36,909 nt of DNA, taken from an uncultured Nitrospiraceae bacterium. Lineage in GTDB: Bacteria > Nitrospirota > Thermodesulfovibrionia > Thermodesulfovibrionales > UBA9159. Location: assembly GCA_947085305.1 (NCBI GenBank), contig CAMTVV010000132.1, positions 1 through 36,909 on the forward strand, in the 5' to 3' direction. The position numbers and the translations under genes are program-made. Of the stretch, positions 10,064 to 27,714 are shown piece by piece (within the stretch, counting starts at the first letter, position 1; each line of letters starts with the position of its first letter). Under the pieces are notes generated by a model. That model saw only the letters and a list, made by a program, of their open reading frames with translations, made no database searches and had not been told where the DNA came from.

Positions 10064-10067
10064 TTTT

Positions 10068-10092
10068 TCTGTGACTCTGTGTCCTCTGTGGC
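10068..10092. repeat. CACAGAG-heptad repeat, 5' flank of the GxxExxY gene
   Basis: The minus strand reads GCCACAGAGGACACAGAGTCACAGA. It is the inverted partner of 9671-9689. Confidence 0.7.
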
Positions 10093-12501: not shown

Positions 12502-12558
12502 CACAACCTCCAAATGAAAGCAAGCTCTAAATCCTAATCGATTTCAAAAAAGGTTTTT

Positions 12559-12604
12559 CTCTGTGCTTTCATTCTTCTTTTCTCTGTGACCTCTGTGGCA
12601 GAGA
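12559..12604. repeat. Orphan CACAGAG-heptad repeat in the nuoM-nuoN spacer
   Basis: The minus strand reads CCACAGAGGTCACAGAG...CACAGAG. It is the same motif that brackets the GxxExxY gene. Confidence 0.65.
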
Positions 12605-12649
12605 CTTCTTGCAAGAGCCTCTTTAGCATTTCGATATTAGGGTTTGTTC

Positions 12650-14170
12650 TCATTTCAGGATTCCCATGATCTTTCCGGCAACAGCCACCTCCTGCCCTCC
12701 TGCGTTCAGCCGTTTCAGGAGATTCTCCACCGAGGGGTGCATGAAACTGAGGAACGTATCGGGATAGATGCCGATCCAGAAGACAAGGATCACCATGGGG
12801 AGAAGCGTGATGATCTCCCTCAGGTCCATCTCCTTGAGGCCGACAATCTTCTGATTCGTCTCCATAAAGAAAACCCTCTGGTACAGCCAGAGCATGTATG
12901 CCGCGCCTATTATAATTCCTGTGGCGGCAAGAACGCCTGCCCACTTGCTTGCAGCAAAGCCGCCCAGAATGATGAGAAACTCACCGATAAATCCGTTGGT
13001 GCCCGGCAGTCCGATAGATGCAAGGGTGAATACCATAAAGAACGCTGCATAGACCGGAAGGACAGCAGCGAGTCCTCCGTAGTCGCTTATCTGCCGCGAG
13101 TGAGTACGGTCATAAATGATCCCGACGGAGAGGAACAGTGCCCCTGTTACGATTCCATGATTGATCATCTGGAGGATGCTGCCCTCAAGCCCCTGTGTAT
13201 TCAGCGCAAAGATGCCCAGGGTCACAAACCCCATATGGCTTACCGAGCTGTAGGCGATGAGGCGCTTGAGGTCCGACTGCGCAAGGCATACCACCGCGCC
13301 ATAGATGATAGCGATGACCGAGAGGGTCAGCATCGGAATTGCCATTGCCTTTGCCGCATCAGGGAACAGGGGGATGCTGAATCTCAGGAAACCATAGGCG
13401 CCCATCTTGATCAGCACCGCGGCAAGGATCACGCTGCCTGCGGTGGGGGCCTCGGTATGCGCGTCAGGGAGCCATGTGTGCACCGGAAACATGGGCACCT
13501 TCACGGCAAAGGCCGCAAAGAACGCCCAGAAGAGCCAGAACTGCATCTGATAGGGATAGTTCATGTTCATCAGTTCAAGGATATTAAATGTCTTGCCTGC
13601 ATAGAAATACAGCACGATAATGCCAACAAGCATGAGCACGCTTCCCACAAGGGTAAAGAGGAAAAACTTTATGGCAGCATATATCCTGTTGGGACCGCCC
13701 CAGACCCCGATGAGGAGATACATGGGGATGAGCATCGCCTCCCAGAAGAGATAGAAGAGGAAAAAATCAAGGGATGAGAAGACGCCGATCATGGCGCCTT
13801 CCATTATCAGAATCGCGATGTAGAATTCCTTGAGCTTTGTCTTGATGGAGTTCCATGAGATCAGAACGCAGAGGATCGTGACCAGTGTGCTGAGGAGTAT
13901 GAAAAGGACGCTTATTCCGTCAACCCCCAGGAAATAGTTTATGTTCCATGCGGGAATCCACTGGTGCCTCTCGGTAAACTGCATAAGATGCGTTGTCTTG
14001 TCAAAATCAGTGAACAGGGGAATGGAGAGGATGAAGGCTGCGATGCTCACTGCCAGGGCTACCCATTTTGTCAAAGCCTCCTGACTCCTGCCGATAAGCA
14101 GGATAACAGCCGCGCCCATGAAAGGCAGAAATATCAGGGCGCTGAGAATGGGATAGCCGAGCTCGTTCAT
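12650..14170 (-). CDS. nuoM: NADH-quinone oxidoreductase subunit M
   Basis: Antiporter-like subunit (VKVPMFPVHTWLPDAHTEAPTAGSV). AGGAGG lies upstream. Confidence 0.93.
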   Translation of the reverse strand: MNELGYPILSALIFLPFMGAAVILLIGRSQEALTKWVALAVSIAAFILSIPLFTDFDKTTHLMQFTERHQWIPAWNINYFLGVDGISVLFILLSTLVTILCVLISWNSIKTKLKEFYIAILIMEGAMIGVFSSLDFFLFYLFWEAMLIPMYLLIGVWGGPNRIYAAIKFFLFTLVGSVLMLVGIIVLYFYAGKTFNILELMNMNYPYQMQFWLFWAFFAAFAVKVPMFPVHTWLPDAHTEAPTAGSVILAAVLIKMGAYGFLRFSIPLFPDAAKAMAIPMLTLSVIAIIYGAVVCLAQSDLKRLIAYSSVSHMGFVTLGIFALNTQGLEGSILQMINHGIVTGALFLSVGIIYDRTHSRQISDYGGLAAVLPVYAAFFMVFTLASIGLPGTNGFIGEFLIILGGFAASKWAGVLAATGIIIGAAYMLWLYQRVFFMETNQKIVGLKEMDLREIITLLPMVILVFWIGIYPDTFLSFMHPSVENLLKRLNAGGQEVAVAGKIMGILK

Positions 14171-14222
14171 TAATGGCGCCTCCTGTCGATCACGAAGTTT
14201 AAGCCTTCACTAAAAAATCCTT

Positions 14223-16139
14223 TTACCATAGCAACACCATGGCGATTACCATAAATGCGCCTATGGCCATCACCGCAGCATATTGATGCACCATGCCGGT
14301 CTGGAGACTTCTTAACCACGACGAGAACCTGCCGATGAGGCCCGGGACGCCGTTCACAATGCCTTCGATGATCTTTCCGTCCGTAACGCCCACAATAACG
14401 TTCTTCGCTATCCAGAACGTGGGCCTCACAATAATAAAGTCATAGAGTTCATCAATATAATATTTATTCCACAAAAGCTGATAGATAAAGCTGAACCGCT
14501 GGGAAAGGGTATCGGCTATGGCGCTCTTTCTGAGATATACGAAGGCTGCTGCAGCGATGCCGGTGAAGCCGATGATTACCGAGAGGATAATGACAGCCCA
14601 TTCTTCGGCATGCGTTCCATGGCCCTTGGCATGTCCGACAACGGGTGCGAGGAACTCTGCAAAATGATCGCCGCCGCCGAGAAGAGGCGGTATGCCTACC
14701 CAACCTGAGGCCACTGCGCCGATGCCGAGGATCAGGAGGGGAATGGTCATGATCTTTGGGGATTCGTGAAGATGGCGCTCCTGCTCGTGGGTACCCCTGA
14801 ATTTTCCATGGAACGCGAGGAAGACGATCCTGAATGAGTAGAATGCCGTCAAAAGGGCGGTTAAAGCGCCCAATGCGAATAAGATATGTCCGAGCGGTCC
14901 GGAGGCATATGCCCTCCAGAGGATCTCGTCCTTGCTGAAGAAACCGGCAAGGCCGGGAACGCCCGCAATGCTCAATGAGGCGATAAGGAACGTCCAGTAG
15001 GTCAGCGGCATATGCTTCTTAAGTCCGCCCATTTTCTGAATATCCAACCCCCCTGCCATGGCATGCATGACGCTGCCTGCCCCGAGGAACAAAAGGGCCT
15101 TGAAAAATGCATGGGTATAGAGAAGGAAAATGCCTGCGCTGTAAGCGCCGACGCCGCAGGCAAGGAACATGTATCCAAGCTGGCTCACTGTTGAGTAAGC
15201 GACGATGCGTTTGATGTCGTTCTGCACAAGGGCTATGGTCCCTGCAAAAAGAGCCGTGACCGCACCCACCACCGCAACCGTGTTCATGGCAAAAGGGGAG
15301 AGGTCGAATATGGGACTGCACCGGGCCACAAGAAACACGCCTGCGGTAACCATTGTTGCAGCATGTATCAGCGCGCTCACAGGGGTCGGACCTTCCATGG
15401 CATCCGGCAGCCAGACATGCAAGGGTATCTGGGCCGATTTCCCCACCGCGCCGCAGAAAAGGAGCAAGGCGATGAGGGTGGGGAGATCCACCTCCATGCC
15501 GAGGAAATTCACGGTCTGGCCTGCGATGGTATTCATTGCTCCGAATACCGGGGCATAATGGAGCGTGCCGAAGGTGAGAAACACCATGATCACTCCCAGC
15601 CCGAACCCGAAGTCGCCGAACCTGTTGACGATGAACGCCTTCTTCCCAGCGTCGGAGGCGGACTTCTTCTCATACCAGAAGCCGATGAGGAAATAGGAGC
15701 AGAGACCCACCGCCTCCCACCCGAAATAGAGCTGGAGAAAATTGTTCGACATGACCAGCATCAGCATCGAGAAGGTGAAGAGGCTCAGGAACGAGAAAAA
15801 CCGGTAGTATCCCTTGTCGCCGTGCATGTATCCCACGGAATAGATGTGCACAAGGGAACTTACGGTGGTAACCACGATGAGCATCACCGCGGTGAGCTGA
15901 TCAATGAGAAAACCCACCGAGACCTTGAAGGCGCCGGACGTTATCCAGGTATAGAGGTCCTCATTAATCGTTCTCCCGCCGATAACCTCAAAAAGGGTTA
16001 TCACCGAGATTACCCACGACACCACCACCGCGGGAATGGCAATCCAGTGAGCCTTATCCTTTATCAGGTTCCTGCCGAAAAGGATATTGATAAAAAATGC
16101 GGCCAGTGGGAGAAACGGTATTAAGAGATAGTTATCCAT
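14223..16139 (-). CDS. nuoL: NADH-quinone oxidoreductase subunit L
   Basis: Antiporter-like subunit with a C-terminal lateral-helix extension (GKSAQIPLHVWLPDAMEGPTPVSALIHAATMV). The start is taken at MDNYLLIPF. The 30-codon upstream extension reads through the structured repeat. Confidence 0.92.
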   Translation of the reverse strand: MDNYLLIPFLPLAAFFINILFGRNLIKDKAHWIAIPAVVVSWVISVITLFEVIGGRTINEDLYTWITSGAFKVSVGFLIDQLTAVMLIVVTTVSSLVHIYSVGYMHGDKGYYRFFSFLSLFTFSMLMLVMSNNFLQLYFGWEAVGLCSYFLIGFWYEKKSASDAGKKAFIVNRFGDFGFGLGVIMVFLTFGTLHYAPVFGAMNTIAGQTVNFLGMEVDLPTLIALLLFCGAVGKSAQIPLHVWLPDAMEGPTPVSALIHAATMVTAGVFLVARCSPIFDLSPFAMNTVAVVGAVTALFAGTIALVQNDIKRIVAYSTVSQLGYMFLACGVGAYSAGIFLLYTHAFFKALLFLGAGSVMHAMAGGLDIQKMGGLKKHMPLTYWTFLIASLSIAGVPGLAGFFSKDEILWRAYASGPLGHILFALGALTALLTAFYSFRIVFLAFHGKFRGTHEQERHLHESPKIMTIPLLILGIGAVASGWVGIPPLLGGGDHFAEFLAPVVGHAKGHGTHAEEWAVIILSVIIGFTGIAAAAFVYLRKSAIADTLSQRFSFIYQLLWNKYYIDELYDFIIVRPTFWIAKNVIVGVTDGKIIEGIVNGVPGLIGRFSSWLRSLQTGMVHQYAAVMAIGAFMVIAMVLLW

Positions 16140-16158
16140 ACTCGCTCCATTTCCCCGG

Positions 16159-16281
16159 TTGTCATTCCCGCTTGTCGGGAATCCTTCCCCAAAGGCTTTC
16201 GGAAAATCACAAAAAAAGATTCTGGACAAGCCAGAATGACAGAAACGAATTCGCTAATTTTAAATTTTGCATTTTGCATTC
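16159..16281 (+). repeat. Structured intercistronic repeat, copy B (nuoK-nuoL spacer)
   Basis: TGTCAT ... ATTCCCG-CTTGT-CGGGAAT ... ATTCTGG-ACAAG-CCAGAAT ... ATGACA, then TTTTGCATTTTGCATT. It aligns with 8201-8290. Confidence 0.75.
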
Positions 16282-16293
16282 TTGATTTATCCA

Positions 16294-16596
16294 TCATCCC
16301 TTCATCTCGTTTGCTTCATCCATATGGGCAGTCGCCTTGTTCCTGAAGAGGGCAATAATGATGCCGAGACCTATGGCTGCCTCTGCTGCAGCCACCGCTA
16401 TGATAAAGAACACAAATATCTGCCCTCTCATGTCATCCAGGTAACGGCTGAAGGAGACAAGACTTATGTTCACCGCATTGAGCATGAGCTCTATGGACAG
16501 GAACATGATGATGATGTTCCTCCGCGTCAGAAATCCTGCCACTCCCACAATAAAAACAATTGCGCTCAGCCATAAATACCACTGTAAAGGAATCAT
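16294..16596 (-). CDS. nuoK: NADH-quinone oxidoreductase subunit K
   Basis: 100 aa with 3 TM helices and the conserved membrane glutamates ([18 protein letters not shown]). Confidence 0.93.
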
Positions 16597-16597
16597 C

Positions 16598-17110
16598 CTA
16601 TCTCCTCAGCTTTTTCTTTGCCAGCACTATCGCCCCTATGATCGCCACGAGCAGCACGATTGACACCACCTCAAAGGGGTAAAGATATTCCGTGAAGAGA
16701 ACCTTTCCCAGCGCCTTTGTGTTCGTCTCTGCCTTAATCACTTCATTGGTGAAGGGGCCCTTCTGCCCGGCAACAAAGGAATCCAGGGAAACAATAATGG
16801 CCAGAAATAACCCCGCCGCTGCCATGAGTCCCAGAGGCCACGGTCCCACATATCTCCTCGCTACCGCCTCCTCCCTCAGGTTAAGGAGAAGGATGACGAA
16901 GAGAAAGAGGACAAGGATGGCGCCTGCATACACGATGACCTGGACAGCGGCAAGGAATTCCGCGTTCAATGTCACATACAGGCCCGCGATATGAAAAAAG
17001 AGAAGCAGCATGGCGATCACGCTGTGCACCGGGTTCCTCCTGGTAATCACAAGGATCGACAGGATCGTGATCGCCGCGGCAAGATAGATGAATATTCCTT
17101 CAGCGAGCAT
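16598..17110 (-). CDS. nuoJ: NADH-quinone oxidoreductase subunit J
   Basis: NuoJ-like TM protein. The start is taken at MLAEGIFIY, with GGGGGA 7 nt upstream. The longer ORF to 17233 runs inside nuoI. Confidence 0.88.
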
Positions 17111-17654
17111 TCTGTTTCCCCCTGAAAACCGCCTGGTTCCTGGGAAAACCGAAGTCATCGGCCGTAGGGTGCCAGAACTTCTTGAAGTACTCCATATTCT
17201 TATCCCACCCCATATAGTTGTCCCAGTTGGCAAGCAGCTTCTCCTTGGTCATGTAGAACGCCTCCCTGGAATAATCCGAATATTCATAGTGTTCGGTGAG
17301 GACGACCGCAGCATACGGGCAGGCCTCCACACAAAGTCCGCAGAAAACACACCTGAGCGCTTCTATTTCATACCGTTCCACGATCTTTTTGTGGTCGAGA
17401 CTGTCCGCAGTGTAAATATAAATACATTTTGAGGGGCATATGGCCGCGCAGAGGCCGCATCCCACGCATCGCGCCTCTCCGGTCTGCTGATCCCTCACAA
17501 GACCGTGGAGCCCCCTGAATCCGGGCATCGCAGGCCTTTTCTCCTTTGGATACTGCCGCGTCACAGGGCGGGTGAACATGGTTTTCAGAGTCAGGGCCAT
17601 GCCCTGGGCGATCTCTGTGAGGAACACCGTTTTTACAAGATTCTTCAATGTCAT
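17100..17654 (-). CDS. nuoI: NADH-quinone oxidoreductase subunit I (2x[4Fe-4S])
   Basis: Two motifs: CVGCGLCAAICP and CVFCGLCVEACP. It has a 4-nt overlap with nuoH. Confidence 0.93.
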   Translation of the reverse strand: MTLKNLVKTVFLTEIAQGMALTLKTMFTRPVTRQYPKEKRPAMPGFRGLHGLVRDQQTGEARCVGCGLCAAICPSKCIYIYTADSLDHKKIVERYEIEALRCVFCGLCVEACPYAAVVLTEHYEYSDYSREAFYMTKEKLLANWDNYMGWDKNMEYFKKFWHPTADDFGFPRNQAVFRGKQNAR

Positions 17655-18649
17655 GGCAACACCTTCGTAATCTTCAAGATTCCGGTAAGCACTATGTTAA
17701 ACAATGCGAGGGGGATCAGCACCTTCCATCCCAGGCTCATGAGATGGTCATAGCGGTATCTCGGCAGCGTGGCTCTTACCCAGTAATAGATGAAAATGAG
17801 GACATAGAGCTTTAAGAAAAACCAGGCAAAGGGCACATAGGGTATCGTAAACGGACCGTTCCATCCGCCGAGGAAGCATACGGTCCCGATGGAGGCCATG
17901 ATAATCATTCCGGTGTACTCTGCAACAAAGAAGAGTCCATACCTCATTCCGCTATACTCCACAAAGTACCCCGCCACCAGCTCGCTCTCGGCCTCGGGCA
18001 GGTCAAAGGGCGCCCTGTTGGTTTCTGCGATGGCGGCAATAACAAAGACCGAACAGCCGATAATCTGAGGAATCAGAAACATGCCGAAGGGATATCGTTC
18101 CTGCGCCCGGACGATATCAGAGAGATTCAGCGAACCCGCAAGCATCATCACTCCCACGAGGCTGAGTCCCAGGGCGATTTCATAGCTTATCACCTGAGCG
18201 GCAGACCGCAAGCCGCCGAGGAAAGAATATTTTGAGTTCGACGCCCATCCCGCCAGGATGATTCCGTAGGAACCGAGGGCTGACATGGCAAGGACAAAGA
18301 GCAATCCCACGTTTATATCGGCAATGGCGAATCCGTCAAAGAAGGGGATTACTGCAAGGGATGAAAGGGCCCCCACAAGAGAAATCACGGGAGCAACAAA
18401 GAATACCGGTTTATCAGACTGGGCAGGGATGATGTCTTCCTTGAAGAACAACTTGATGCCGTCTGCAATGGGCTGGAGAAGCCCGTGGGGTCCGACATTC
18501 ATGGGGCCGAGCCTCACCTGCATATGCCCTATGGTTTTCCTTTCAAAGTAAGTCGCATAGGCAACGTGCAGCATCACCGCTCCAAACACGATGAGTATCT
18601 TCGCCAGTATAATTGCAAGGTATAAAAGGGTATCTATTACGCCCGGCAT
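17651..18649 (-). CDS. nuoH: NADH-quinone oxidoreductase subunit H
   Basis: NuoH/ND1 blocks (ERKxxGHMQxRxGP, AETNRAPFDLPEAESELVAG). Confidence 0.93.
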   Translation of the reverse strand: MPGVIDTLLYLAIILAKILIVFGAVMLHVAYATYFERKTIGHMQVRLGPMNVGPHGLLQPIADGIKLFFKEDIIPAQSDKPVFFVAPVISLVGALSSLAVIPFFDGFAIADINVGLLFVLAMSALGSYGIILAGWASNSKYSFLGGLRSAAQVISYEIALGLSLVGVMMLAGSLNLSDIVRAQERYPFGMFLIPQIIGCSVFVIAAIAETNRAPFDLPEAESELVAGYFVEYSGMRYGLFFVAEYTGMIIMASIGTVCFLGGWNGPFTIPYVPFAWFFLKLYVLIFIYYWVRATLPRYRYDHLMSLGWKVLIPLALFNIVLTGILKITKVLP

Positions 18650-18754
18650 GCTAACCTCTCAGCCTCGTCTGCTTCGCCGTTAATAAAACAAGAGCGGCAA
18701 CCGTTTTGTCAAGTGCGCGAGAACAATCCCGGACCCTCGCTCTCCGGTTCCGTA

Positions 18755-19210
18755 TCATCTGCTCTTCCTGAACATAAGGTGCATAAGGTCTATGTACTGA
18801 CTGTTCATATTTCTGACAATGGACGCCAGATGTATGGCAAGCCGCCGTAATATCTTGCCCGCGACAAGCGGATTGGACATGAGGAGCCCGTCAAAGTCCG
18901 CTTTCCTCAACACCGTCAACCGCGTCTGCTGGTCGGAAACAATAGTCGCATCATGAGCGCTGCCGTCAAGAAAGGACATTATCCCGAATATATCCCCCTC
19001 CTTCAGGGTTGCTATGCAGAACTGATCGCCTTCCACCATCATCTTGTTTATCTTCACTTTCCCCTTCCCGATGATATTCAGGCTGTCGCCCCTTTCTCCC
19101 TCTTTGTAAATAATCTCATTCGGCTCATAATCCCTGGACTGCAATAGATCATGGATGATGTCCATCTCCGAGCCGTCAAGCTCCCGGAAAATGTGACTTT
19201 CCCCGGTCAC
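18755..19210 (-). CDS. Stand-alone cyclic-nucleotide-binding (CNB/CAP-effector) fold protein, no DNA-binding domain
   Basis: CNB beta-barrel pattern (YEPNEIIYKEGERGDSLNIIGKGKVKI ... LKEGDIFGIMSFLDGSAHDATIVS). The start is uncertain. GTG at 19210 has GAGGA 7 nt upstream. Alternatives are GTG 19249 or ATG 19345, both overlapping nuoD. Confidence 0.7.
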   Translation of the reverse strand: MTGESHIFRELDGSEMDIIHDLLQSRDYEPNEIIYKEGERGDSLNIIGKGKVKINKMMVEGDQFCIATLKEGDIFGIMSFLDGSAHDATIVSDQQTRLTVLRKADFDGLLMSNPLVAGKILRRLAIHLASIVRNMNSQYIDLMHLMFRKSR

Positions 19211-19238
19211 ACCCGCATCCTCACTCTTATTTCCCGGT

Positions 19239-20441
19239 TTATCTGTCACACTCGCCAAGCACAATGTCGACAGTCCCGATGTTTGCGATGACATCAGCGA
19301 TAAGGGAGCCCTCGCACAGCCTCGGTATGACCGACGCATGGACAAATGATGGCGCCCTCACCCTCATCCGGTAAGGTCTGCCTGTTCCGTCGCTCACAAA
19401 ATAAAACCCCAGCTCGCCCTTCGGCGCTTCCACTGCCGAATATATCTCGCCCTCCGGAGCAGCCATGGGACCCTTGGTAATAAGGACAAAGTGATGGATC
19501 ATGGCTTCCATGCTGCTGAGTACCGTGTTCTTGGGTGGGAGGGTTAGTTTCGGCGCGTCAGGGGCCATGACAGGGCCCGCAGGAAGCCGCTCGATACACT
19601 GCCGTATAATCCTGTTGGACTGCCTGAATTCCTCCATCCTGCAACGATACCGGTCGTACACATCCCCGGCCTTCCCCAAAGGAACGTCGAATTCCACTTT
19701 ATCATATGCGTCATAGGGGGCATGCTTCCTCACATCATACGCTACGCCCGAACCCCTCAGGGTAGGACCCGTGAGTCCCCAGTTCACTGCCTCGTCTGCT
19801 TCAATCACGCCGATGCCCTTTGTCCTCTTGAGCCATATCCGGTTCTGGTCTATGAGCGTCTCATACTCCTCAACCCTCCCCGGGAATTCGTCGGTGAATT
19901 TATAGAGGCTGTCGATGAATTCCTGTGACACGTCGTTCCTGACCCCTCCGATCCTTGCATAACTTGTGGTAAGTCTCGCCCCGCAGAGCATCTCAAAGAG
20001 ATCCAGAAGCCATTCCCTCTCCCTGAAGGAGTAAAGAAACACGGTCATTGCCCCGATGTCCAGGGCATGGGTGCCGAGCCACAGGATATGGCTGCTTATC
20101 CTCGACATCTCCGAAACCATGGTCCTGATATACTTTGCCCTTTCAGGAGCCTCTATTCCGAACAGCCGCTCCACCGCGAGACAGTACCCCTGGTTGTTCA
20201 CCATAGCGGAGATATAGTCAAGCCTGTCGGTGAGGGGAAGGGCGGTGAGGTATGTCCTGTTTTCTCCGAGCTTTTCAACGCCCCGGTGAAGATACCCTAT
20301 ATGGGGAGTGCACTTCACCACGGTTTCGCCGTCCAGTGCAAGGACAAGCCTGAGCACCCCGTGGGTCGCCGGATGCTGCGGCCCCATATTTATGGTCAGC
20401 TCTTTCGTCTGTAATTCAGCGGCGCCCTTATCCGTTATCAT
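19239..20441 (-). CDS. nuoD: NADH-quinone oxidoreductase subunit D
   Basis: NuoD signature ([26 protein letters not shown]-terminal DIVLGECDR). No NiFe-hydrogenase CxxC pairs. Confidence 0.95.
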
Positions 20442-20986
20442 CTTATTTCATACGCCTTGTTTCTCTCCGACAGCTCAAGGATTTCCTTCAGCCCGGGCCA
20501 TTCCTTCTCACCGAGATCACTCTCCAGCGGATAGTCTTTTCTCAGGGGATACCCTTCCCAGTCCTCGGGCATCAATATCCGCAGGAGATCAGGGTGTCCC
20601 TTGAACCGTATCCCGAACATGTCGTAGCACTCCCGTTCATGCCAGTTCGCTCCATCCCAGATGCTCACCACGCTGTCGATCTCGGGGTCATCCTCAGGGA
20701 CTTCAGCCCTGATCCTTATCGTATGCCTGTGGCTGATGGAATAAAGCTGATACACCACCTCGAACCTCGGCTCCTTCTTTCCGAGGTAATCGACACCGCA
20801 AAGGTCTCTCAGATAGCTGAAACAGAGCTCGGGGGTGTCGTGCAGGTATTCCATTATCTCCTTCAGCCTGTCTTTTTGTATAACTACGGATACCTGCCCG
20901 CGGAATTCCCTTATCTCTTTCACTTCAGAGGGAAAACGTTCCCGCATTCCCTCTGCGATCGTCTGTGATATCAATGTCGGTTCCAT
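20438..20986 (-). CDS. nuoC: NADH-quinone oxidoreductase subunit C
   Basis: NuoC motif ([24 protein letters not shown]). ATGA overlap with nuoD. Confidence 0.92.
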
Positions 20987-20996
20987 CTCTTCTCCA

Positions 20997-21060
20997 TTTA
21001 TGATTTCAGATTTATGACTGCTGATTTAAAAATCTGAAATCTGAAATCTACAATCATAAA
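20997..21060. repeat. Long imperfect hairpin built from ATCTGAA/TTCAGAT heptads, filling the nuoB-nuoC spacer
   Basis: The arms at 20997-21027 and 21030-21060 are largely complementary: TTTATGATT...AGATTT pairs with AAATCT...AATCATAAA. It abuts the nuoC RBS. Confidence 0.6.
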
Positions 21061-21067
21061 TCCCTTA

Positions 21068-21589
21068 CTATCTCCACATGCTCCACTTGAAATGCTCTTT
21101 TTTTATCTTCTCCTGAAGCTTGATGATCCCTTCCATAAGGGCTTCAGGCCTTGGCGGACAGCCGGGAATGTACACGTCCACGGGAAGAAAGGTATCAACG
21201 CCCTGGACCGTGCTGTAGGTATTATAGATCCCTCCCGAACATGCGCAGCTTCCCATGGCCATCACATATCTCGGCTCGGGCATCTGGTCGTAGACCCTCC
21301 GTATGACCGGAACCATCTTCTTCGACACCGTGCCGGCGATGATCACCACGTCCGACTGTCTCGGCGAGCCCCTGAAGATAATCCCGAACCGGTCAAGGTC
21401 ATAGTGCGCCGAGCCTGTAGTCATCATTTCTATGGCGCAGCATGCCAGACCAAAGGCCATGGGCCAGAGGGAAGAAACCCTCCCCCAGTTCACGAGCTTG
21501 TCAATGCTCGTGATGATAGTGTTGGCTCCGGGGATTATCTTTACCCTTTCTTCCACTTCGACAAGCGCGGTTGTGCTCTCTTTTATCAT
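21068..21589 (-). CDS. nuoB: NADH-quinone oxidoreductase subunit B
   Basis: N2-cluster motifs ([26 protein letters not shown]). The start is set at MIKEST (GAGGG upstream). The ORF's first ATG at 21616 lies inside a heptad repeat array. Confidence 0.9.
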
Positions 21590-21610
21590 AATGCCCTCGC
21601 TTTCGCTATA

Positions 21611-21675
21611 GCTCATTGCTCATAGCTGATAGCTCATAGTTTCTTGCCATGAGCGATGAACCATGAACTATGAGC
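21611..21675. repeat. Inverted arrays of GCTCATA-type heptads (4 direct, 8-nt spacer, 4 inverted) in the nuoA-nuoB spacer
   Basis: GCTCATT GCTCATA GCTGATA GCTCATA ... CATGAGC GATGAAC CATGAAC TATGAGC. 21 of 28 arm positions are complementary. Confidence 0.7.
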
Positions 21676-21679
21676 TTTC

Positions 21680-22051
21680 TTAGTCCCACCGGAATGCTTC
21701 CTTTTTCCATGCGTACACATAGCCCACCACAAGAATGGCGATAAAGAGCATCATTGACACAAATGCATAGAGTCCGATCTCATCGAATACAATCGCCCAG
21801 GGATACAGGAATACCGCCTCAACGTCAAATATCACAAAGAGCATGGCGACGATATAAAACCTTACGGAAAAACGGTATCGCGGCTCTCCCACGGGGGGAT
21901 TTCCGGACTCGTAGGGAAGGAGTTTTTCCCGGTATGGTCTCCTCAGCCTGAGGACAATGCCCACTGCAAGCGTGCCGAGACCAAACGCCAGCACAACCAC
22001 CATAAAGATGACTATCGGCAAATACTCTTCTGGTAAGAATGCAGTCGGCAT
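21680..22051 (-). CDS. nuoA: NADH-quinone oxidoreductase subunit A
   Basis: NuoA pattern (YESG..P.G, FSVRFYIVAMLFVIFDVEAVFLYPWA). The start is taken at MPTAFLPEEY. The upstream extension to 22165 has no homology and crosses the divergent promoter region. Confidence 0.9.
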   Translation of the reverse strand: MPTAFLPEEYLPIVIFMVVVLAFGLGTLAVGIVLRLRRPYREKLLPYESGNPPVGEPRYRFSVRFYIVAMLFVIFDVEAVFLYPWAIVFDEIGLYAFVSMMLFIAILVVGYVYAWKKEAFRWD

Positions 22052-22149
22052 AAAACGAACTATTTTATACCTAAAATCATAATGAGAGTCAAGCAAAAAA
22101 TCTAATCCTGCAATTTTAGGCACCCAGGCCGATATTTTTTTTAGATTTT

Positions 22150-22158
22150 TGATAAAAT
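22150..22158 (+). promoter_or_regulatory. Extended -10 element (TGATAAAAT) positioned for a leaderless histidine-kinase mRNA
   Basis: TGnTAAAAT ends 6 nt before the ATG at 22165. There is no Shine-Dalgarno. It lies in the AT-rich 113-bp divergent region shared with nuoA. Confidence 0.3.
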
Positions 22159-22164
22159 TGTGCA

Positions 22165-23769
22165 ATGGCCAGAAAATCTTTGAACTCCCTTGCCGGCAAG
22201 CTCATCATCGCAGTGGGCGCCCTCATAACCTTCGGCAGTCTCCTCTTCGGCTTCACCTTCATGCGCTATGAGGAGCGTATCATGATGAACAACCTGATAA
22301 GTTATGCCGCCTCCACGGCAGACCTTGTGAAAAGAGGGATCTATTACTCCATGATGACCGCCCATCGTGAGGCCATTGAGCAGACCGTGGAGGTCATCGG
22401 ATCCGGAGCCGACATCAAGGACATTTCGATCTTGGACAAACGAGGCAAGATTGTGTACTCTTCACAGAAATCCGAGATGGGCCGCTCCGTTGACAAAGGC
22501 GCACCAATCTGCCAGACCTGCCACAAAGACAACGGGGCGCCCCTTGCGGCCCCGGAACCAAGAAACTGGGCCATCGTATCTGATGCATCTGGAACAAAAA
22601 CCCTCAAGTTCGTCATCCCGATCTACAACGAGCCTTCGTGTTATACCGCATCCTGCCACTATCATCCAAAGGAAAAAAATATCCTCGGGATCCTCGAAAC
22701 GGATTTCAGCACCGCGACGGTCGATACCGTCATACGTAAGCACCGTATCGGCACCATCGCGTTCGGCGGCCTCTTTATTATCATGATATCCTTCTCCCTC
22801 TTCATCATCCTCTACAAGTTTGTCTCGAAGCCGGTTTCTCTGCTGGATGAGGGGATGCAGAAACTGGCGAAGGGGGAGCTGGATCACGTCATCGAGATCC
22901 ATTCCCGGGACGAAATGGGACTTCTTGCCGACACCTTCAATGCCATGGCCGGCGATATCAGGCGGTATAAAGACAATATGGAGAACTGGACCAAGGCGCT
23001 GGAAGAGGAGATCCAGAAAAAGACCTCGGAGATCATGAAGGCTCATGACCAGATCATCAATGCAGAGAAGCTCGCTTCCCTGGGCAGGATGGCTGCGGGA
23101 GTTGCCCACGAATTGAACAGCCCCCTTACAGGAATCGTCACCTTTTCCCACCTCATGCTGAAGCGGATGCCTCCTGAGAACAAACAGGATATCGAGGACC
23201 TGGAGGTGATCATAGAACAGACGGAGCGGTGTTCCAAAATCATCAAGGGCCTCCTCGGGTTCTCCCGCAAAACCTCTGCGGAAAAGGTCTTTGTAAACAT
23301 CAACACATTGACGGAGAACACCATCTCCATGGTGAGAAACCAGGCAAAGTTTCATAATATTAAATTCGCGCTGAATTTTGACAATTCCCTCCCCCAGATA
23401 TCCATCGACCCCAACCAGCTGCAGCAGGTCTTTATCAACCTTCTCATCAATGCAGCCGATGCCATGAACGAAAGGGGGCAGGTTACTGTCGCGACCCGGG
23501 TAAGCCTTGACACGGCAAGCGGAAGAAAATTTGTGGAGATTGAGTTCACCGATACGGGACCGGGCATCCCTGAAGAGCACCTCGGCAGGGTGTTTGAACC
23601 GTTTTTTACCACGAAGCCGGTGGGCAAAGGAACAGGGCTGGGGCTTGCGGTGAGTTACGGAATAATCAAGAAACACGGCGGAAATATTTTTGTCAGGAGC
23701 GAACTGGGCAGGGGCGCGAGTTTCTTCGTGAGACTGCCGGCGGAAAACACTGTGGTTGCAGAGTCTTAG
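22165..23769 (+). CDS. Sensor histidine kinase: TM, about 160-aa extracytoplasmic domain with CxxCH and Cx4CH, TM, HAMP, HisKA, HATPase_c
   Basis: TM1 spans residues 9-33 and TM2 about 195-217. HAMP is present. H-box AAGVAHELNSPLTGI, N-box NLLINAADAM, G1 DTGPGI, G2 GTGLGL. Cys motifs ICQTCH (22510-22524) and SCYTASCHYH (22639-22659). Confidence 0.9.
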   Translation: MARKSLNSLAGKLIIAVGALITFGSLLFGFTFMRYEERIMMNNLISYAASTADLVKRGIYYSMMTAHREAIEQTVEVIGSGADIKDISILDKRGKIVYSSQKSEMGRSVDKGAPICQTCHKDNGAPLAAPEPRNWAIVSDASGTKTLKFVIPIYNEPSCYTASCHYHPKEKNILGILETDFSTATVDTVIRKHRIGTIAFGGLFIIMISFSLFIILYKFVSKPVSLLDEGMQKLAKGELDHVIEIHSRDEMGLLADTFNAMAGDIRRYKDNMENWTKALEEEIQKKTSEIMKAHDQIINAEKLASLGRMAAGVAHELNSPLTGIVTFSHLMLKRMPPENKQDIEDLEVIIEQTERCSKIIKGLLGFSRKTSAEKVFVNINTLTENTISMVRNQAKFHNIKFALNFDNSLPQISIDPNQLQQVFINLLINAADAMNERGQVTVATRVSLDTASGRKFVEIEFTDTGPGIPEEHLGRVFEPFFTTKPVGKGTGLGLAVSYGIIKKHGGNIFVRSELGRGASFFVRLPAENTVVAES

Positions 23770-23806
23770 ACCATGTATGTCAATAAAAGGGAAAGAAGGT
23801 GAAGAC

Positions 23807-24166
23807 ATGACCCTCGGAAAAGTGATAGAGGTGCTGGAGGGAGAGGTGGCGCTGAACACAGGGGACATGGAGATCGAAATCCTCTCTGTCTGCAGCTCTG
23901 ACCTTATGAGCGATCTTCTGCATTTTTCGAGCAAGCCCAGGTCGCTGCTTATTACCGGGCTGAACAACACCCAGGTGGTGCGAACGGCAGAGATCGCCGA
24001 CATCAAGGCAGTGGTCTTTGTCCTTGACAAGAGGCCTGACCGGGAGACCGTGGAGATGGCCCGGCAGAAAGGCATCACCCTGATCGTCACAAGACTCTCG
24101 CGGTTCACCGCCTGCGGGAGGTTATACGCTGAGGGCCTTGTAAGCTGCACAGGGGAAAACCGGTAA
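23807..24166 (+). CDS. DRTGG domain protein
   Basis: DRTGG-type pattern (DLMSDLL...SLLITGLNNTQVVRTAEIADIKAVVFV). The start is at MTLGKV after GAAGGTGA. It has a TAATG overlap with the next gene. Confidence 0.8.
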   Translation: MTLGKVIEVLEGEVALNTGDMEIEILSVCSSDLMSDLLHFSSKPRSLLITGLNNTQVVRTAEIADIKAVVFVLDKRPDRETVEMARQKGITLIVTRLSRFTACGRLYAEGLVSCTGENR

Positions 24167-24609
24167 TGGCTGATAAGAACATAGAGGGGAGTTTTCATCT
24201 CACCGGCGGAGATTTTACCAATGCAGGCGCAGCCTCCAGTGAGCTGAAATCAATCATGACCAAGCTCAACATCAGCCCTCATCTTGTGAGGAGGGCTGCC
24301 ATCGCAACCTTTGAGGCGGAGATGAACGTGATCATTCATGCCGTTGCCGGGGTGATGTACTACCTGATTACCCCGGACTCCATCAAGGTCGTTCTCAACG
24401 ACATGGGCCCCGGCATCCCTGATATTCAACAGGCGATGCGTGAAGGGTACTCCACAGCGCCGGACTGGATTCGGGAGATGGGATGGGGCGCGGGGATGGG
24501 ACTGCCGAACATGAAAAAAAACTCCGATGAGTTCAGGATAGATTCGGTTGTCGGTGAGGGAACAACCGTCGAGATAATCATAAAGATCAAGGAGGACAAA
24601 ACACCGTGA
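24166..24609 (+). CDS. RsbW/SpoIIAB-like Ser/Thr protein kinase (GHKL ATPase, anti-sigma regulatory factor family)
   Basis: N-box EAEMNVIIHA, G1 DMGPGIPD, G2 GAGMGLPN, about 147 aa, no HisKA domain. Confidence 0.8.
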   Translation: MADKNIEGSFHLTGGDFTNAGAASSELKSIMTKLNISPHLVRRAAIATFEAEMNVIIHAVAGVMYYLITPDSIKVVLNDMGPGIPDIQQAMREGYSTAPDWIREMGWGAGMGLPNMKKNSDEFRIDSVVGEGTTVEIIIKIKEDKTP

Positions 24610-24941
24610 ATATTCGAGAGGTTATGGACTTGTTAGCATCGGACGTAAAAACGACAAAAGGGGATCTCGGGCGTGCCGTCACCGGGTGCTATATCAGCGA
24701 CCTTCTCTCGGACGTCATAGCGAATGCCAAAGATGGAGAGGTGTGGATTACCCTCCAGACACATCCCAACATCGTTGCAGTGGCTTCCCTTAAGAATCTT
24801 GCCGGCATCATCATAACAAATAAAAGGACTCCCGAGGAGGAGACCCTGAAAAAGGCGGAGGACGAACATATCACTGTTGCGGTAAGCCCGCTGACCACCT
24901 TTGAGGCTGGAGGTTTGCTTTATAAGCTGCTCCGATGCTGA
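24606..24941 (+). CDS. DRTGG domain protein (second copy)
   Basis: GTG start overlapping the preceding stop (GTGA). DLLSDVI...VWITLQTHPNIVAVASLKNLAGIIIT pattern. Confidence 0.75.
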   Translation: MNIREVMDLLASDVKTTKGDLGRAVTGCYISDLLSDVIANAKDGEVWITLQTHPNIVAVASLKNLAGIIITNKRTPEEETLKKAEDEHITVAVSPLTTFEAGGLLYKLLRC

Positions 24942-25678
24942 GACCCTTCCTTGCCGACCTGCATATGCACACGTGCCTTTCTCCTTGCGCTGAAATCGAC
25001 ATGACCCCCAGGGAGATCGTGACCGCATCTCTGGAAAGGAGACTGAACCTCATCGCCATAACAGACCATAACTCCGCAGAGAACGTTGAGGCCGCACAGA
25101 AGGCGGCGGAAGGGACAGGTCTTGTAGTCCTGGCGGGGATGGAGGTCGCCTCCTCCGAGGAAGTGCATATCCTCGCGCTCTTTGAGAGCCCTGATGATGC
25201 AAAGGCATTACAGGACATTGTCCAGGAGAACCTGCCCTCCGGAGAAAACGATGAACGATTGTACGGGCGACAGATCATTGTAAATGAGAAAAACGAAGTC
25301 ATGGGATTTAACCGGAGGCTGCTGATCGCAGCGACAAATCTTACCGCGCATACCCTCCTGGATTTCATCAAATCTCTGGGCGGCATCTCCATTGCAAGCC
25401 ATGTGGACCGTGAAGCCTTCAGTGTTGTCTCTCAGCTTGGTTTCATCCCCGAAGATCTTTGCTTTGATGCCCTCGAGCTCTCTCCGCGTATCAGCAGGAA
25501 TGAAGCGGAAACCGCCTTTCAGGGGCTGAAGAGTTTTCCCTGGGTTTCTTTTTCCGACGCCCATTACGTGAAAGACATCGGCAGAAGGATCACAACGTTT
25601 ACCATGAGGGAACCATCCCTGCACGAGATGCGTCAGGCGTTCAAGAATGTGGATGGCCGCACGCTCTCCTGGGATTGA
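24935..25678 (+). CDS. PHP (polymerase/histidinol phosphatase) domain metal-dependent phosphoesterase
   Basis: ADLHMHTCLSPCAE and AITDHNS motifs, and a later HxD/H-rich set (IASHVDRE, FSDAH). It overlaps the upstream gene by 7 nt. Confidence 0.85.
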   Translation: MLRPFLADLHMHTCLSPCAEIDMTPREIVTASLERRLNLIAITDHNSAENVEAAQKAAEGTGLVVLAGMEVASSEEVHILALFESPDDAKALQDIVQENLPSGENDERLYGRQIIVNEKNEVMGFNRRLLIAATNLTAHTLLDFIKSLGGISIASHVDREAFSVVSQLGFIPEDLCFDALELSPRISRNEAETAFQGLKSFPWVSFSDAHYVKDIGRRITTFTMREPSLHEMRQAFKNVDGRTLSWD

Positions 25679-25682
25679 CGGA

Positions 25683-26216
25683 ATGGAAGACTTATCCCTG
25701 CATATCCTCGATATTGCGGAAAACTCAGTTGCTGCCGGGGCAGACAGGGTTGAGATCACCGTGGATGAAGATACAAAAAACGATCTCCTCACCCTCGAGA
25801 TAAGGGACAATGGAAGGGGGATGGATAAAGAGACAATACAGAAGGTGACCGATCCTTTTTTCACCACCAGGACTGTAAGAAGGGTTGGCCTTGGCTTGCC
25901 GTTCCTCAAGCAGGCAGCGGAAGAATGTGAGGGGCGCTTTTCCATGGCATCGGAAAAGGGAAAGGGCGCCATTGTCTCGGTGAGTTTCAGGAGCAGCCAC
26001 ATAGACAGAAAACCCCTTGGCGACATCGGAGCCACCATTATGGTGCTGCTAGCGGGTAACCCAGGGGTTGATGTTCTCTTCACCTATAAAAAAGATGGCT
26101 ACACGTACTGGATGGACACCCGGGTGATCAGGAAAGAGCTGGAAGAGGTCCCGATAAATTCACCGGAAGTGTTGAAGCTCATACGGAAAGATATTGACAG
26201 GGGGCTGAAAGGATGA
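25683..26216 (+). CDS. Orphan GHKL/HATPase_c ATP-binding protein (no HisKA, no sensor domain)
   Basis: N-box HILDIAENSVAAGA, G1 DNGRGM, G2 GLGLPF. The start is at MEDLSLH, 4 nt after the PHP stop. Confidence 0.8.
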   Translation: MEDLSLHILDIAENSVAAGADRVEITVDEDTKNDLLTLEIRDNGRGMDKETIQKVTDPFFTTRTVRRVGLGLPFLKQAAEECEGRFSMASEKGKGAIVSVSFRSSHIDRKPLGDIGATIMVLLAGNPGVDVLFTYKKDGYTYWMDTRVIRKELEEVPINSPEVLKLIRKDIDRGLKG

Positions 26217-26335: not shown

Positions 26336-26713
26336 ATGAGCAAAACGAAGATCCTTGTGATCGATGACGAAGAGATCGTACGAATTAGTTGCAGGAAATG
26401 TTTAGCGCCTGAAGGATATGAGGTGGACGTCGCCGCAAATGGCGCCGACGGGCTGAGGCTGACCCGGGAAAAACATTATGCCCTCATTCTCACGGACCTG
26501 AAGATGCCCGATATGGACGGCATGGAATTCCTCATGACCATGAAGGAGATGCAGCCTGAAGCAAAGGTGATCATGATAACCGGGTATAGCACCGTGGAGC
26601 ATGCTGAAGAGGCGACGCGCCTGGGGGCGTACAACTATATCGAAAAACCCTTCACGCCGGATACCCTCATCGCTGCGGTGAGAGAGGCGCTCCATGACAT
26701 AAAGAAAACATAA
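26336..26713 (+). CDS. Stand-alone response-regulator receiver (CheY-like)
   Basis: LVIDDEE, LILTDLKMPDMDG, IMITGY and EKPF. All phospho-acceptor pocket residues are present. GGGAGG RBS. Confidence 0.9.
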   Translation: MSKTKILVIDDEEIVRISCRKCLAPEGYEVDVAANGADGLRLTREKHYALILTDLKMPDMDGMEFLMTMKEMQPEAKVIMITGYSTVEHAEEATRLGAYNYIEKPFTPDTLIAAVREALHDIKKT

Positions 26714-26788
26714 AGGGTTCTCACTTCTGACGCCCGTAATGTTATTTTGTATCGCAACTTTCAGGTCTGTTTCGCGGGCATGGACGGC

Positions 26789-26818
26789 TTGATAAAGAAC
26801 AGATTATTTATTTATTAT
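26789..26818 (+). promoter_or_regulatory. Putative sigma-70 promoter for the NuoEFG-like operon (TTGATA-N18-TATTAT)
   Basis: The hexamers lie in an AT-rich 137-bp spacer, 33 nt upstream of the ATG at 26851 (RBS AAGGAGGGG). Confidence 0.35.
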
Positions 26819-26850
26819 ATAAAACAAGGTTTCAAGGAGGGGAAAAAGGA

Positions 26851-27714
26851 ATGGCAGGCAGAATACTCGTTGTGGACGATGAACCTGTTGTTGTCAAGAG
26901 CTGTGAACGCATCCTGACTCCGGAAGGGTATGCTGTTGAAAGCGCGTTAAACGGCGTTGAAGCCATTGCCAAACTCGGCGGGGACAGCTTTGATCTTGTG
27001 ATTACCGACCTGAAGATGCCTGATATCGACGGTCTCGAACTTATCCGGTGGATAAGGAATTCCAGGCCTGACACAGGTATCGTGGTCATCACCGGCTTCC
27101 CATCCCAGGAAAGTATCAAAGAAGCCCTCAGCTTAAGGATCCTTGATTATCTTCCCAAGCCTTTTTCCCCTGCCCTCCTTATCGAGATCACCCAGAGAGC
27201 CCTGGAATACAAAAAAGCGGGACGGGCCGCCGAGACTCCCCCGACCGAAGAGTATACTGAGGAGATGGCGAGAGAACTCGATTCCATTATAAAGAAATAC
27301 AGGAAAAAGCCGGGCAGTCTCATCCCCGTGCTTCAGGAGGCCCAGGAGATCATCGGCTTCCTGCCTCCTTCCGTGCAGAGACATATAGCGAAGGGACTGA
27401 AACTTCCGGTGAGCGAAGTGCATGGGGTTGTGTCGTTCTACTCCTTCTTCACCATGAAGCCGAAGGGAAAACACAATATCCGCGTTTGCCTCGGAACGGC
27501 GTGCTATGTAAAGGGTGCTGAGGAGATCGTGAAGAAATTAAGTGAAGGGCTTGCCATCAGTGTGGGGGGAATCACCGAAGACAAGAAGTTCTCCCTCGAA
27601 ACTGTGCGGTGCCTCGGCGCATGCGGATTGGCGCCGGTGGTTGTTGTGGACAAGGATTATCATGGCTCTCTGAACGCAGTCAACGCGCATGAATTGCTGA
27701 AAGACTATGAATAG
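26851..27714 (+). CDS. Receiver domain fused to NuoE/HydC-type thioredoxin-like [2Fe-2S] subunit
   Basis: Residues 1-120 are a receiver (LVVDDEP, LVITDLKMPDIDG, VVITGF, PKPF). Residues about 135-287 are NuoE-like (IPVLQEAQEIIGFLP, VCLGTAC = Cx4C, RCLGAC = Cx3C). Confidence 0.9.
   Translation: MAGRILVVDDEPVVVKSCERILTPEGYAVESALNGVEAIAKLGGDSFDLVITDLKMPDIDGLELIRWIRNSRPDTGIVVITGFPSQESIKEALSLRILDYLPKPFSPALLIEITQRALEYKKAGRAAETPPTEEYTEEMARELDSIIKKYRKKPGSLIPVLQEAQEIIGFLPPSVQRHIAKGLKLPVSEVHGVVSFYSFFTMKPKGKHNIRVCLGTACYVKGAEEIVKKLSEGLAISVGGITEDKKFSLETVRCLGACGLAPVVVVDKDYHGSLNAVNAHELLKDYE

Follow-up and report, generated by a model that had tools for sequence, protein, structure and literature searches.

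The window analysed here is a 36,909-nucleotide stretch of DNA from an uncultured Nitrospiraceae bacterium (contig CAMTVV010000132.1), and our subject is a gene within it that joins a CheY-like receiver domain (REC), the phosphorylated part of response regulators, to a NuoE-type 2Fe-2S subunit of an electron-input flavoprotein module. The fused gene lies directly downstream of a second, stand-alone receiver gene, which is itself preceded by a five-gene accessory cassette and a membrane-bound histidine kinase. It is followed by genes for an HndB-like protein and for two further subunits of the module, BfuB and BfuA. All of these are on the plus strand, and this Bfu operon is divergent from an operon for an 11-subunit complex I (Nuo) on the minus strand. 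Table 1 gives the positions.

Table 1 Features of the window surrounding the REC-NuoE fusion gene (positions are those of the window; aa, amino acids)
Feature	Position	Strand	Basis or remark
Complex I operon nuoA-B-C-D-(cNMP-binding gene)-H-I-J-K-L-M-N, without nuoEFG	11080..22165	-	Open reading frames, Pfam
Histidine kinase, 534 aa: transmembrane segment, extracytoplasmic loop, transmembrane segment, HAMP, HisKA, HATPase_c	22165..23769	+	Pfam
DRTGG	23756-24166	+	Pfam
HATPase_c_2	24166-24609	+	Pfam
DRTGG	24606-24941	+	Pfam
PHP	24935-25678	+	Pfam
HATPase_c	25647-26216	+	Pfam
Stand-alone receiver, 125 aa	26336..26713	+	Pfam; D54 codon 26495-26497
Sigma-70-like promoter match TTGATA-18-TATTAT, 10/12 positions	26789..26818	+	Consensus match only, 33 nt 5' of the fusion gene
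REC-BfuC (REC-NuoE) fusion, 287 aa	26851..27714	+	Pfam, PDB relatives, AlphaFold2 model, Foldseek
Fusion, receiver: residues 1-122	26851-27216	+	Phospho-Asp D53 codon 27007-27009
Fusion, linker: residues 123-136	27217-27258	+	Flexible
Fusion, NuoE/HydC-type 2Fe-2S domain: residues 137-287	27259-27711	+	Cys213, Cys218, Cys254, Cys258
HndB-like thioredoxin-fold 2Fe-2S protein, 127 aa	27724..28107	+	Weak Pfam 2Fe-2S_thioredx match
BfuB/HydB-type flavoprotein, 627 aa	28190..30073	+	Pfam, PDB matches
BfuA/NuoG-like subunit, 824 aa	30079..32553	+	Pfam: 2Fe-2S, 4Fe-4S clusters, molybdopterin-oxidoreductase fold

The N-terminal part of the fused protein matches the Pfam family Response_reg (PF00072) with an E value of 8.2e-29, compared with 2.4e-32 for the stand-alone receiver. 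Residues 144-286 match 2Fe-2S_thioredx (PF01257) over profile positions 2-144 of 145 with E 2.3e-50. This agrees with the original prediction, made by a model from the letters and translations only, of a complete NuoE/HydC-like domain with Cx4C and Cx3C ligands; the cysteines are C213-x4-C218 and C254-x3-C258. Reading the sequences, we find the receiver site of the fusion to consist of D9, D10, D53, T81, the aromatic switch residue Y100 and K103, and that of the free receiver of D10, D11, D54, T82, Y101 and K104, so that both indeed keep the acidic pair, the phospho-Asp, the Thr and the Lys previously ascribed to them. In an AlphaFold2 (AF2) model of the fusion with 29 homologues as input (mean predicted local distance difference test score, pLDDT, of 80.8), the receiver is a complete (beta-alpha)5 fold running from beta1-alpha1 through beta5-alpha5, with residue 122 as the end of alpha5. 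The stretch 124-133 has pLDDT < 50 and is disordered; the first helix of the NuoE part begins at residue 137, which agrees with the linker of roughly 15 residues that had been expected. Foldseek searches with the model returned NuoE, HydC and FdsG folds only, with TM scores, normalised to the target, of 0.74-0.80 against HydC and FdsG chains. In the PDB, the C-terminal domain is closest to HydC of bifurcating hydrogenases (7t2r_C, E 4.9e-40; 7q4v_C, 8a6t_C and 7p5h_C), and the domain is 43-45% identical to solved HydC chains. For both receivers the best PDB relatives are NtrC1 (1zy2, 1ny5) and Spo0F. The protein thus has the fold and the site residues of a CheY-like receiver together with the characteristics of a NuoE/HydC/BfuC 2Fe-2S subunit. 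It is a phosphorylatable-looking receiver held on a disordered tether of ~14 residues to the N-terminal helical bundle of BfuC.

The same architecture recurs widely. A search over 5.8 billion proteins, with matches listed as clusters at 90% identity, gave at least 120 clusters of proteins of ~285 residues and 68-99% identity, each having both Pfam domains. The 120 listed clusters derive from NCBI, JGI, ENA and Logan assemblies; the named entries among them are Thermodesulfovibrionales, Nitrospirae or Dissulfurispiraceae, and the proteins are publicly annotated as 'NAD(P)H-dependent oxidoreductase subunit E' or 'NuoE/CheY-like'. In a genome scan using one genome per species, 79 loci were fetched (referred to by L numbers below; P numbers denote proteins) and 56 of them contain an uninterrupted fused open reading frame. 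The linker varies in sequence yet its frame is kept across the clusters and loci (57-99% identity). These results bear directly on the suspicion that a faulty gene call or, as the original prediction allowed, an assembly error or a frameshift had joined a receiver gene to nuoE. Some colour is lent to it by the Ignavibacteriota, where receiver and NuoE are separate genes that in some cases share a frame and are parted by one stop codon; the loss of such a stop could yield an open reading frame of this kind. The suspicion is refuted by the recurrence of the uninterrupted frame: at least 120 non-identical clusters, drawn from four data sources independent of one another, have it, as do 56 genome loci, and we attach practically no probability to an artefact. 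Conserved as it is in dozens of Nitrospirota species, the fusion suggests that an electron-input module may be under the control of phosphorylation.

By and large it is correct that NuoE is normally free of signalling domains, with the qualification that REC-NuoE proteins with intact receiver residues occur in at least 10 distinct clusters at 50% identity and that a HATPase_c::NuoE fusion also exists (P0168). One of the clusters at 50% identity with the REC-NuoE architecture holds a protein labelled Pseudomonadota from a metagenome-assembled genome (MAG). Some genomes have more than one copy of the cluster. One MAG (CALEDV01) has two copies of the cluster, each with a full REC-NuoE gene (L027 and L056). 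Another (WGER01) has a full fusion at L033, and a second locus, L058, that begins within the NuoE gene, the receiver part being out of view. The related protein P0121 (578 aa) contains two Response_reg and two 2Fe-2S_thioredx stretches and is either a head-to-tail doubling of REC-NuoE or a mis-joined gene call.

The state of the receiver was assessed in 137 bona fide fusions. The numbers retaining each residue are 133 for K103, 132 for D53 and for D10, and 131 for T81 and for D9, and the ligand cysteines of the NuoE part are intact. The mean weighted column entropy is 1.60 bits in the NuoE domain, 2.04 bits in the receiver and 2.85 bits in the linker, which is the most variable segment of the protein. 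In a sister cluster of 46 members from the Thermodesulfovibrionales (P0128/P0274), the sequence ITELVMLKLDG places Glu at the position of the acceptor Asp and the remainder of the site is kept; in P0124 and P0258 the receiver site is degenerate. In all of these the NuoE part is intact. Since the domain is retained even where the acceptor Asp has been lost, the fused receiver would be expected to contact the enzyme and not to serve merely as a phosphate sink. The opposite case is provided by a Dissulfurispiraceae MAG (L055, 9980-10504), in which the BfuC orthologue is a protein of 174 residues with no receiver, 77% identical in the NuoE part. The synteny of this locus is unchanged (kinase, cassette, NuoE, hndB, nuoF, nuoG) and it has no free receiver. 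The existence of this orthologue, together with the two folded domains and disordered linker of the AF2 model, indicates that the receiver is probably an add-on module.

The genes downstream of the fusion define the enzyme to which it would belong. The fusion is the sole NuoE-type gene beside BfuB, and the order REC-nuoE, hndB, nuoF, nuoG is conserved throughout the Nitrospirota loci, the HndB-like gene following the fusion gene in nearly all loci. The HndB-like protein itself has PDB matches on the N-terminal 2Fe-2S domain of NfnB/BfuB chains (E 1e-12). BfuB comprises an N-terminal thioredoxin-like 2Fe-2S domain, a flavin mononucleotide (FMN)/NADH domain, SLBB, the 4Fe-4S region of NuoF and, at the C terminus, a 2x[4Fe-4S] ferredoxin domain; its first and last domains are typical of the HydB family. 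It aligns over its full length with 7t2r_B, the HydB subunit of the bifurcating NiFe-HydABCSL (E 7e-251), in keeping with the second of the two kinds of subunit, respiratory or bifurcating, that were named at the outset. End-to-end alignments are also obtained with NfnB, StnB and the HydB chains of A. woodii, T. kivui and T. maritima (E values to 2e-209). Its match to complex I Nqo1/NuoF is over the core only, at ~1e-117 (Nqo1, 5e-117). The best PDB relatives of BfuA are alpha subunits of formate dehydrogenases of the FdsA type, namely 9wxb_B (E 7.3e-121) and, from R. capsulatus, 6tg9_A (E 1.2e-119). Residues 345-349 of BfuA, ARFGY, align to ARVCH of FdsA 6tg9_A, so that Gly-Tyr stands in place of the catalytic Cys/Sec-His, and none of 49 BfuA orthologues has the Cys/Sec-His pair (first position Gly in 48 and Ser in 1; next position Tyr in 47, His in 1 and Phe in 1). 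The 824-residue subunit was considered as part of an NAD-dependent formate dehydrogenase of the FdsABG type, which is ruled out by the absence of the catalytic Cys-His; as in NuoG, catalysis has probably been lost, and the molybdopterin domains at the C terminus of the subunit have diverged strongly.

According to Schut et al. 2022 (PMC9304861), Bfu enzymes are defined by a BfuB with Nuo51 FMN, SLBB, NuoF 4Fe-4S and 4Fe-4S ferredoxin-type domains, a BfuC with a NuoE domain and a BfuA with at least one 2Fe-2S and one 4Fe-4S ferredoxin-type domain. By this domain definition the gene set is a BfuABC module, bifurcation or confurcation between NAD(H), ferredoxin and a third substrate being itself predicted. 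Taken together, the sole NuoE gene of the cluster, a flavoprotein of the BfuB type, a NuoE domain of the HydC type and a non-catalytic BfuA argue that the fused protein is a true subunit of the module.

Upstream of the fusion, 26789-26818 is the only position that is suggestive in a scan of the region for promoters and terminators, in which total counts were not above shuffled expectation. A sigma-54 promoter was sought because NtrC-type regulators occur in related loci; 11 matches were found against 17 expected by chance, none of them upstream of the operon, and this candidate was rejected.

The original prediction described the free and fused receivers as paralogues arising from a tandem duplication. 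As neighbouring paralogues they stand: both are Pfam Response_reg domains, and an ungapped BLASTP alignment of 115 residues gives 40% identity (E 2e-31). A recent duplication is ruled out, because the two coding regions have a nucleotide identity of 48%, and of 27% at third codon positions, and because of the tree. In this neighbour-joining tree, which carries no support values, the fused receivers are monophyletic and their sister group contains free receivers, among them that of the window, NtrC-type receivers and those of proteins with a receiver plus a GcvH-like domain. The window's free receiver clusters with kinase-adjacent free receivers and with the NtrC-type receivers of related loci. 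Two other receivers in the window, those of a LuxR-type protein (340-972) and of a zinc-ribbon protein (33247-34143), fall outside that grouping. Judged by sequence and tree position, the pair are paralogues of long standing within a single, locus-associated family of receivers. The zinc-ribbon protein (plus strand, 298 aa) has its zinc-ribbon at the N terminus, followed by a receiver and a C-terminal stretch of low complexity; its gene lies 3' of a rhomboid protease gene, a position that is conserved in L002-L004, L008 and L053.

A second, separate association between a receiver and NuoE is found in the Ignavibacteriota/Melioribacteraceae. In nine loci (L062, L064, L066, L068, L069, L070, L072, L074 and L078), a gene for a receiver of 121-133 residues ends 3-25 nt before a NuoE gene, and in three Ignavibacteriota loci one frame runs through both genes, interrupted by a single TAG. 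The pair in L062 is at 9992-10852, and the order of genes there is HydC-HydB-HydA, a hydrogenase-like::HisKA-HATPase protein, a receiver, a REC-PAS-histidine kinase, the receiver and NuoE genes, a short NuoF and a second HydA. The short NuoF of the Ignavibacteriota cluster is non-Bfu and a second [FeFe] hydrogenase is present. A more distant fusion, P0129 (39% identical) at L080, stands in a row of genes for a Cache-histidine kinase, an NtrC-type regulator, a REC-REC protein, REC-NuoE and NuoF. That two parts are fused in one lineage and lie as conserved neighbours in another is the classical sign of a functional partnership, here between receiver and NuoE.

The kinase encoded upstream of the cassette has a loop (residues ~34-194) with two haem-c motifs, CxxCH (residue 116) and Cx4CH (residue 159). 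The two are present together in 18 of 21 homologues of the sensor domain, and CxxCH in 19 of the 21, down to ~45% identity. The only PDB similarities of the loop are to the sensors of Geobacter haem-c PAS chemoreceptors (3b47, 3b42), in which the haem motifs are aligned at a non-significant E value of 0.13; the Pfam match to that Geobacter sensor family is below the cut-off. The loop looks like a periplasmic dihaem redox sensor, which is a predicted function and a reasonable reading. Orthologues of the window's free receiver directly follow the haem-motif kinase also in loci that have no Bfu genes (L065, L071, L075, L076 and L079), and among the receivers the free one is therefore the likeliest to be the kinase's cognate partner. 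For the fused receiver the kinase is at most a candidate. The layout of the window, with haem-motif kinase, cassette, free receiver and fusion, is shared by its closest relatives (L001-L004, L007 and L053), and in L008, L021, L034 and L049 the free receiver is followed by a sigma-54 activator with a receiver. The five-gene cassette (23756..26216) travels with Bfu-type NuoE/NuoF genes in other Nitrospirota and also in a Candidatus Avispirillum MAG (L061), where it is found between hydC-like and hydB-like genes; in L050 and L051 it is instead downstream of nuoG. For DRTGG, PHP and hydrogenase in combination, the searchable literature yielded nothing describing the fusion.

Divergent nuoABCD genes, as found in the window, are also present in L001, L002, L007, L021 and L053. 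The 11-subunit complexes of cultured Thermodesulfovibrio have been concluded to be without an NADH module (PMC5165239), and a 'Nuo-Bfu', a 14-subunit complex I with BfuABC inside the nuo operon, has been predicted in Nitrospirae and Planctomycetes (Schut et al. 2022, PMC9304861). That layout, with BfuABC in the middle of the nuoA-N cluster, is not what is seen here, the Bfu genes of the window being in a separate divergent operon. On the basis of gene adjacency, which holds in a subset of the loci, the window would be a split, divergently transcribed Nuo-Bfu. Between nuoD and nuoH, at the place expected for nuoEFG, is a gene (18755-19345, minus strand) with a cNMP_binding domain (Pfam E 1.3e-19). 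It is conserved at 72-80% identity in L001, L002 and L007, and in L051 a 46% identical gene is found in the order nuoD-cNMP-nuoE-nuoF-nuoG. The open reading frame as listed overlaps the end of nuoD and its true start is probably internal. With this gene, the complex I may have gained a second regulatory add-on.

The closest functional precedent, by analogy, is MSMEG_2064/Rv3143 of mycobacterial complex I, which is likewise a CheY-like receiver that belongs to an NADH dehydrogenase-type machine and is encoded beside nuo (PMC10068793, PMC9274095). MSMEG_2064 is a structural subunit of M. smegmatis complex I with its Asp buried against NuoB (PMC10068793), and its phosphorylation has been proposed to control assembly or activity at the level of the protein and not of transcription (PMC10068793, PMC9274095). 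The authors of that work regarded a complex I with a response regulator among its subunits as peculiar to mycobacteria (PMC10068793). The arrangements differ in that MSMEG_2064 is a free protein bound to NuoB, NuoA, NuoC and NuoI in the region of the Q-module, whereas here one receiver is fused to NuoE of the input module and the second is free beside a kinase. The mycobacterial type is, moreover, encoded 5' of nuoA within the nuo operon, while the free receiver of the window is on the opposite strand, 4.2 kb from nuoA, behind the kinase and the cassette. The free receiver was examined as an orthologue of MSMEG_2064 and this was rejected, M. smegmatis complex I (8e9g) being absent from its 60 best PDB matches.

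With the Bfu family, and Nuo-Bfu in particular, the window shares the NuoE domain, the domain set of BfuB, the clusters of BfuA, the Nitrospirota lineage and a complex I membrane and Q-module next door. The BfuC subunits described so far have no receiver, whereas that of the window has one, stands behind a signalling cassette and has an HndB-like gene added. The Bfu survey papers (PMC9304861, PMC11406978) do not mention receivers on BfuC, and the first of these is also silent on kinases. Two-component genes within Bfu clusters are known in the form of the sensory [FeFe]-hydrogenase-kinases (group C3, 'BfuT'/HydS-type; PMC11406978), and it is exactly such a hydrogenase-like::HisKA-HATPase that lies upstream of the REC and NuoE pair in Ignavibacteriota. 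That literature (PMC11406978) describes the sensor kinase and no receiver on or abutting BfuC, and the kinase of the window has haem motifs and is not hydrogenase-like. NtrC1, Spo0F and CheY, the best solved relatives of the receivers, have AAA+/DNA-binding or flagellar/phosphorelay outputs, in contrast to the iron-sulfur subunit of a redox enzyme found here. We found no description in the searchable literature of a receiver fused to NuoE, HydC or BfuC. What is new here is a response regulator with an unusual output and, equally, a Bfu module with a built-in signalling domain.

Receivers signal through their alpha4-beta5-alpha5 face, by dimerisation or by docking. We propose that phosphorylation of D53 would alter dimerisation or docking of the fused receiver and thereby switch the activity, the oligomeric state or the attachment of the flavoprotein module, and we hold this to have a somewhat better than even chance of being correct. 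On this proposal, a BfuC subunit whose partners are the HndB-like protein, BfuB and the non-catalytic BfuA would have gained an N-terminal phosphorylatable receiver, and phosphorylation of Asp53 would change the alpha4-beta5-alpha5 surface of that receiver. Either the receivers would then dimerise differently, so that the BfuABC protomers changed their oligomeric state, or the docking of the receiver on BfuB/BfuC would be altered, turning electron input on or off post-translationally. Bfu complexes work as dimers or tetramers of ABC protomers (PMC9499530), and the mobile 2Fe-2S domain of BfuC has been proposed as the gate of bifurcation or of the low-potential branch (PMC9304861). In the lineage of the window, the signal would probably begin at the neighbouring membrane kinase, whose haem-c motifs give it the look of a redox sensor, and the free 125-residue receiver would be a parallel acceptor, acting as a phosphate sink or competitor or as a second protein-level effector. 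The Bfu module would most likely feed the adjacent 11-subunit Nuo complex, which is without NuoEFG. The complete chain, in which the periplasmic haem-c sensor of the kinase reads redox conditions outside the cell and the kinase acts via the BfuC-tethered and free receivers to decide whether an electron-confurcating BfuABC is active on, or plugs into, the 11-subunit Nuo, seems to us improbable.

Several observations weigh against the phosphorylation switch or against parts of it. No confident interdomain contact between receiver and NuoE is given by the AF2 monomer model (predicted template modelling score, pTM, 0.45). The conservation of the alpha4-beta5-alpha5 face is only marginally above that of the other helices and is not decisive; helix alpha4, at 2.04 bits, has only a slight advantage over the remaining helices of the receiver, which range from 2.24 to 2.47 bits. 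The D-to-E and degenerate receivers mean, as far as their sequences tell, that phosphorylation is not universally required. The haem-motif kinase is beside the fusion only in the subclade of the window (~12 of the 56 loci) and is absent in at least 20 loci having an upstream flank of at least 8 kb. In most other loci a gene for a protein of 255 residues is directly 5' of the fusion and there is no kinase within 8-10 kb. The product of this gene, which is absent from the window and its closest relatives, is a receiver with a weak C-terminal GcvH-like domain (E 2.4e-5; for example L009 9209-9988, L005, L010, L015 and L035-L039). As to the link with complex I, the nuo operon of L034 and L049-L051 contains a canonical, shorter nuoEFG, which thus occurs there together with the REC-NuoE cluster, and many REC-NuoE loci are not beside nuo. 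For these two reasons the attachment of Bfu to Nuo is uncertain.

Some of the same observations would be expected if the fused receiver were a constitutive structural or assembly element, a pseudo-receiver that docks the module to the Nuo Q-module or to another BfuABC protomer. Phosphorylation would then have little or no role, or would only block assembly, as has been proposed for MSMEG_2064. In mycobacterial complex I, Asp63 of the regulator is buried in the interface, and in the present family the fusion is kept in lineages with D53E or degenerate receivers and has no kinase nearby in many loci, all of which fit a structural part. A purely structural domain would not be expected, on the other hand, to keep the acceptor Asp along with the full Asp-Asp/Thr/Lys set and the aromatic switch residue, as 132 of the 137 fusions do; moreover, the orthologue in L055 does without the receiver, and the linker, which is disordered and the most variable segment, also counts against such a role. 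We therefore regard a constitutive structural role as unlikely. The flow of information might also be the reverse, from enzyme to pathway. The redox state of the 2Fe-2S cluster would tune the phosphorylation or dephosphorylation of the tethered receiver, and this redox-gated phosphate sink would set the level of the free receiver or of NtrC-type regulators. Related loci do contain the multi-receiver sets that are typical of branched phosphorelays (a free receiver, a sigma-54 activator with a receiver, REC-REC and the receiver with a GcvH-like domain), and the free receiver resembles the Spo0F and NtrC1 receivers. Against such a signalling device, neither an Hpt protein nor a second NuoE gene is present, and the NuoE domain is near to catalytic HydC (43-45% identity) and is the sole BfuC candidate for the adjacent BfuB. 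The position of the receiver N-terminal to its output is the usual order and fits NuoE as the regulated part. A sensory role of this kind we consider improbable.

The Bfu/HydABC enzymes and the complex I-type machines set the NADH/ferredoxin balance of anaerobes. To our knowledge almost all of the control described for them is transcriptional, the one exception being the recently found regulator subunit of mycobacterial complex I with its proposed role. If the proposed phosphorylation switch is correct, a receiver on the subunit proposed to gate bifurcation would be a direct handle on fast control of the enzyme. Should the complete chain from the haem-c kinase to Nuo hold as well, the electron-input module of a complex I would be subject to gating or exchange that is post-translational and controlled by a signal. 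The catalogue of response-regulator outputs would extend to an iron-sulfur redox subunit. The finding, inferential at present, is a surprising one for specialists in bioenergetics and in two-component systems alike, and the natural variants of the protein (split-gene, receiver-less, D-to-E and degenerate) are usable as controls. It bears, finally, on whether the 'NuoEFG-less' complex I of Thermodesulfovibrionales is truly without an NADH module.

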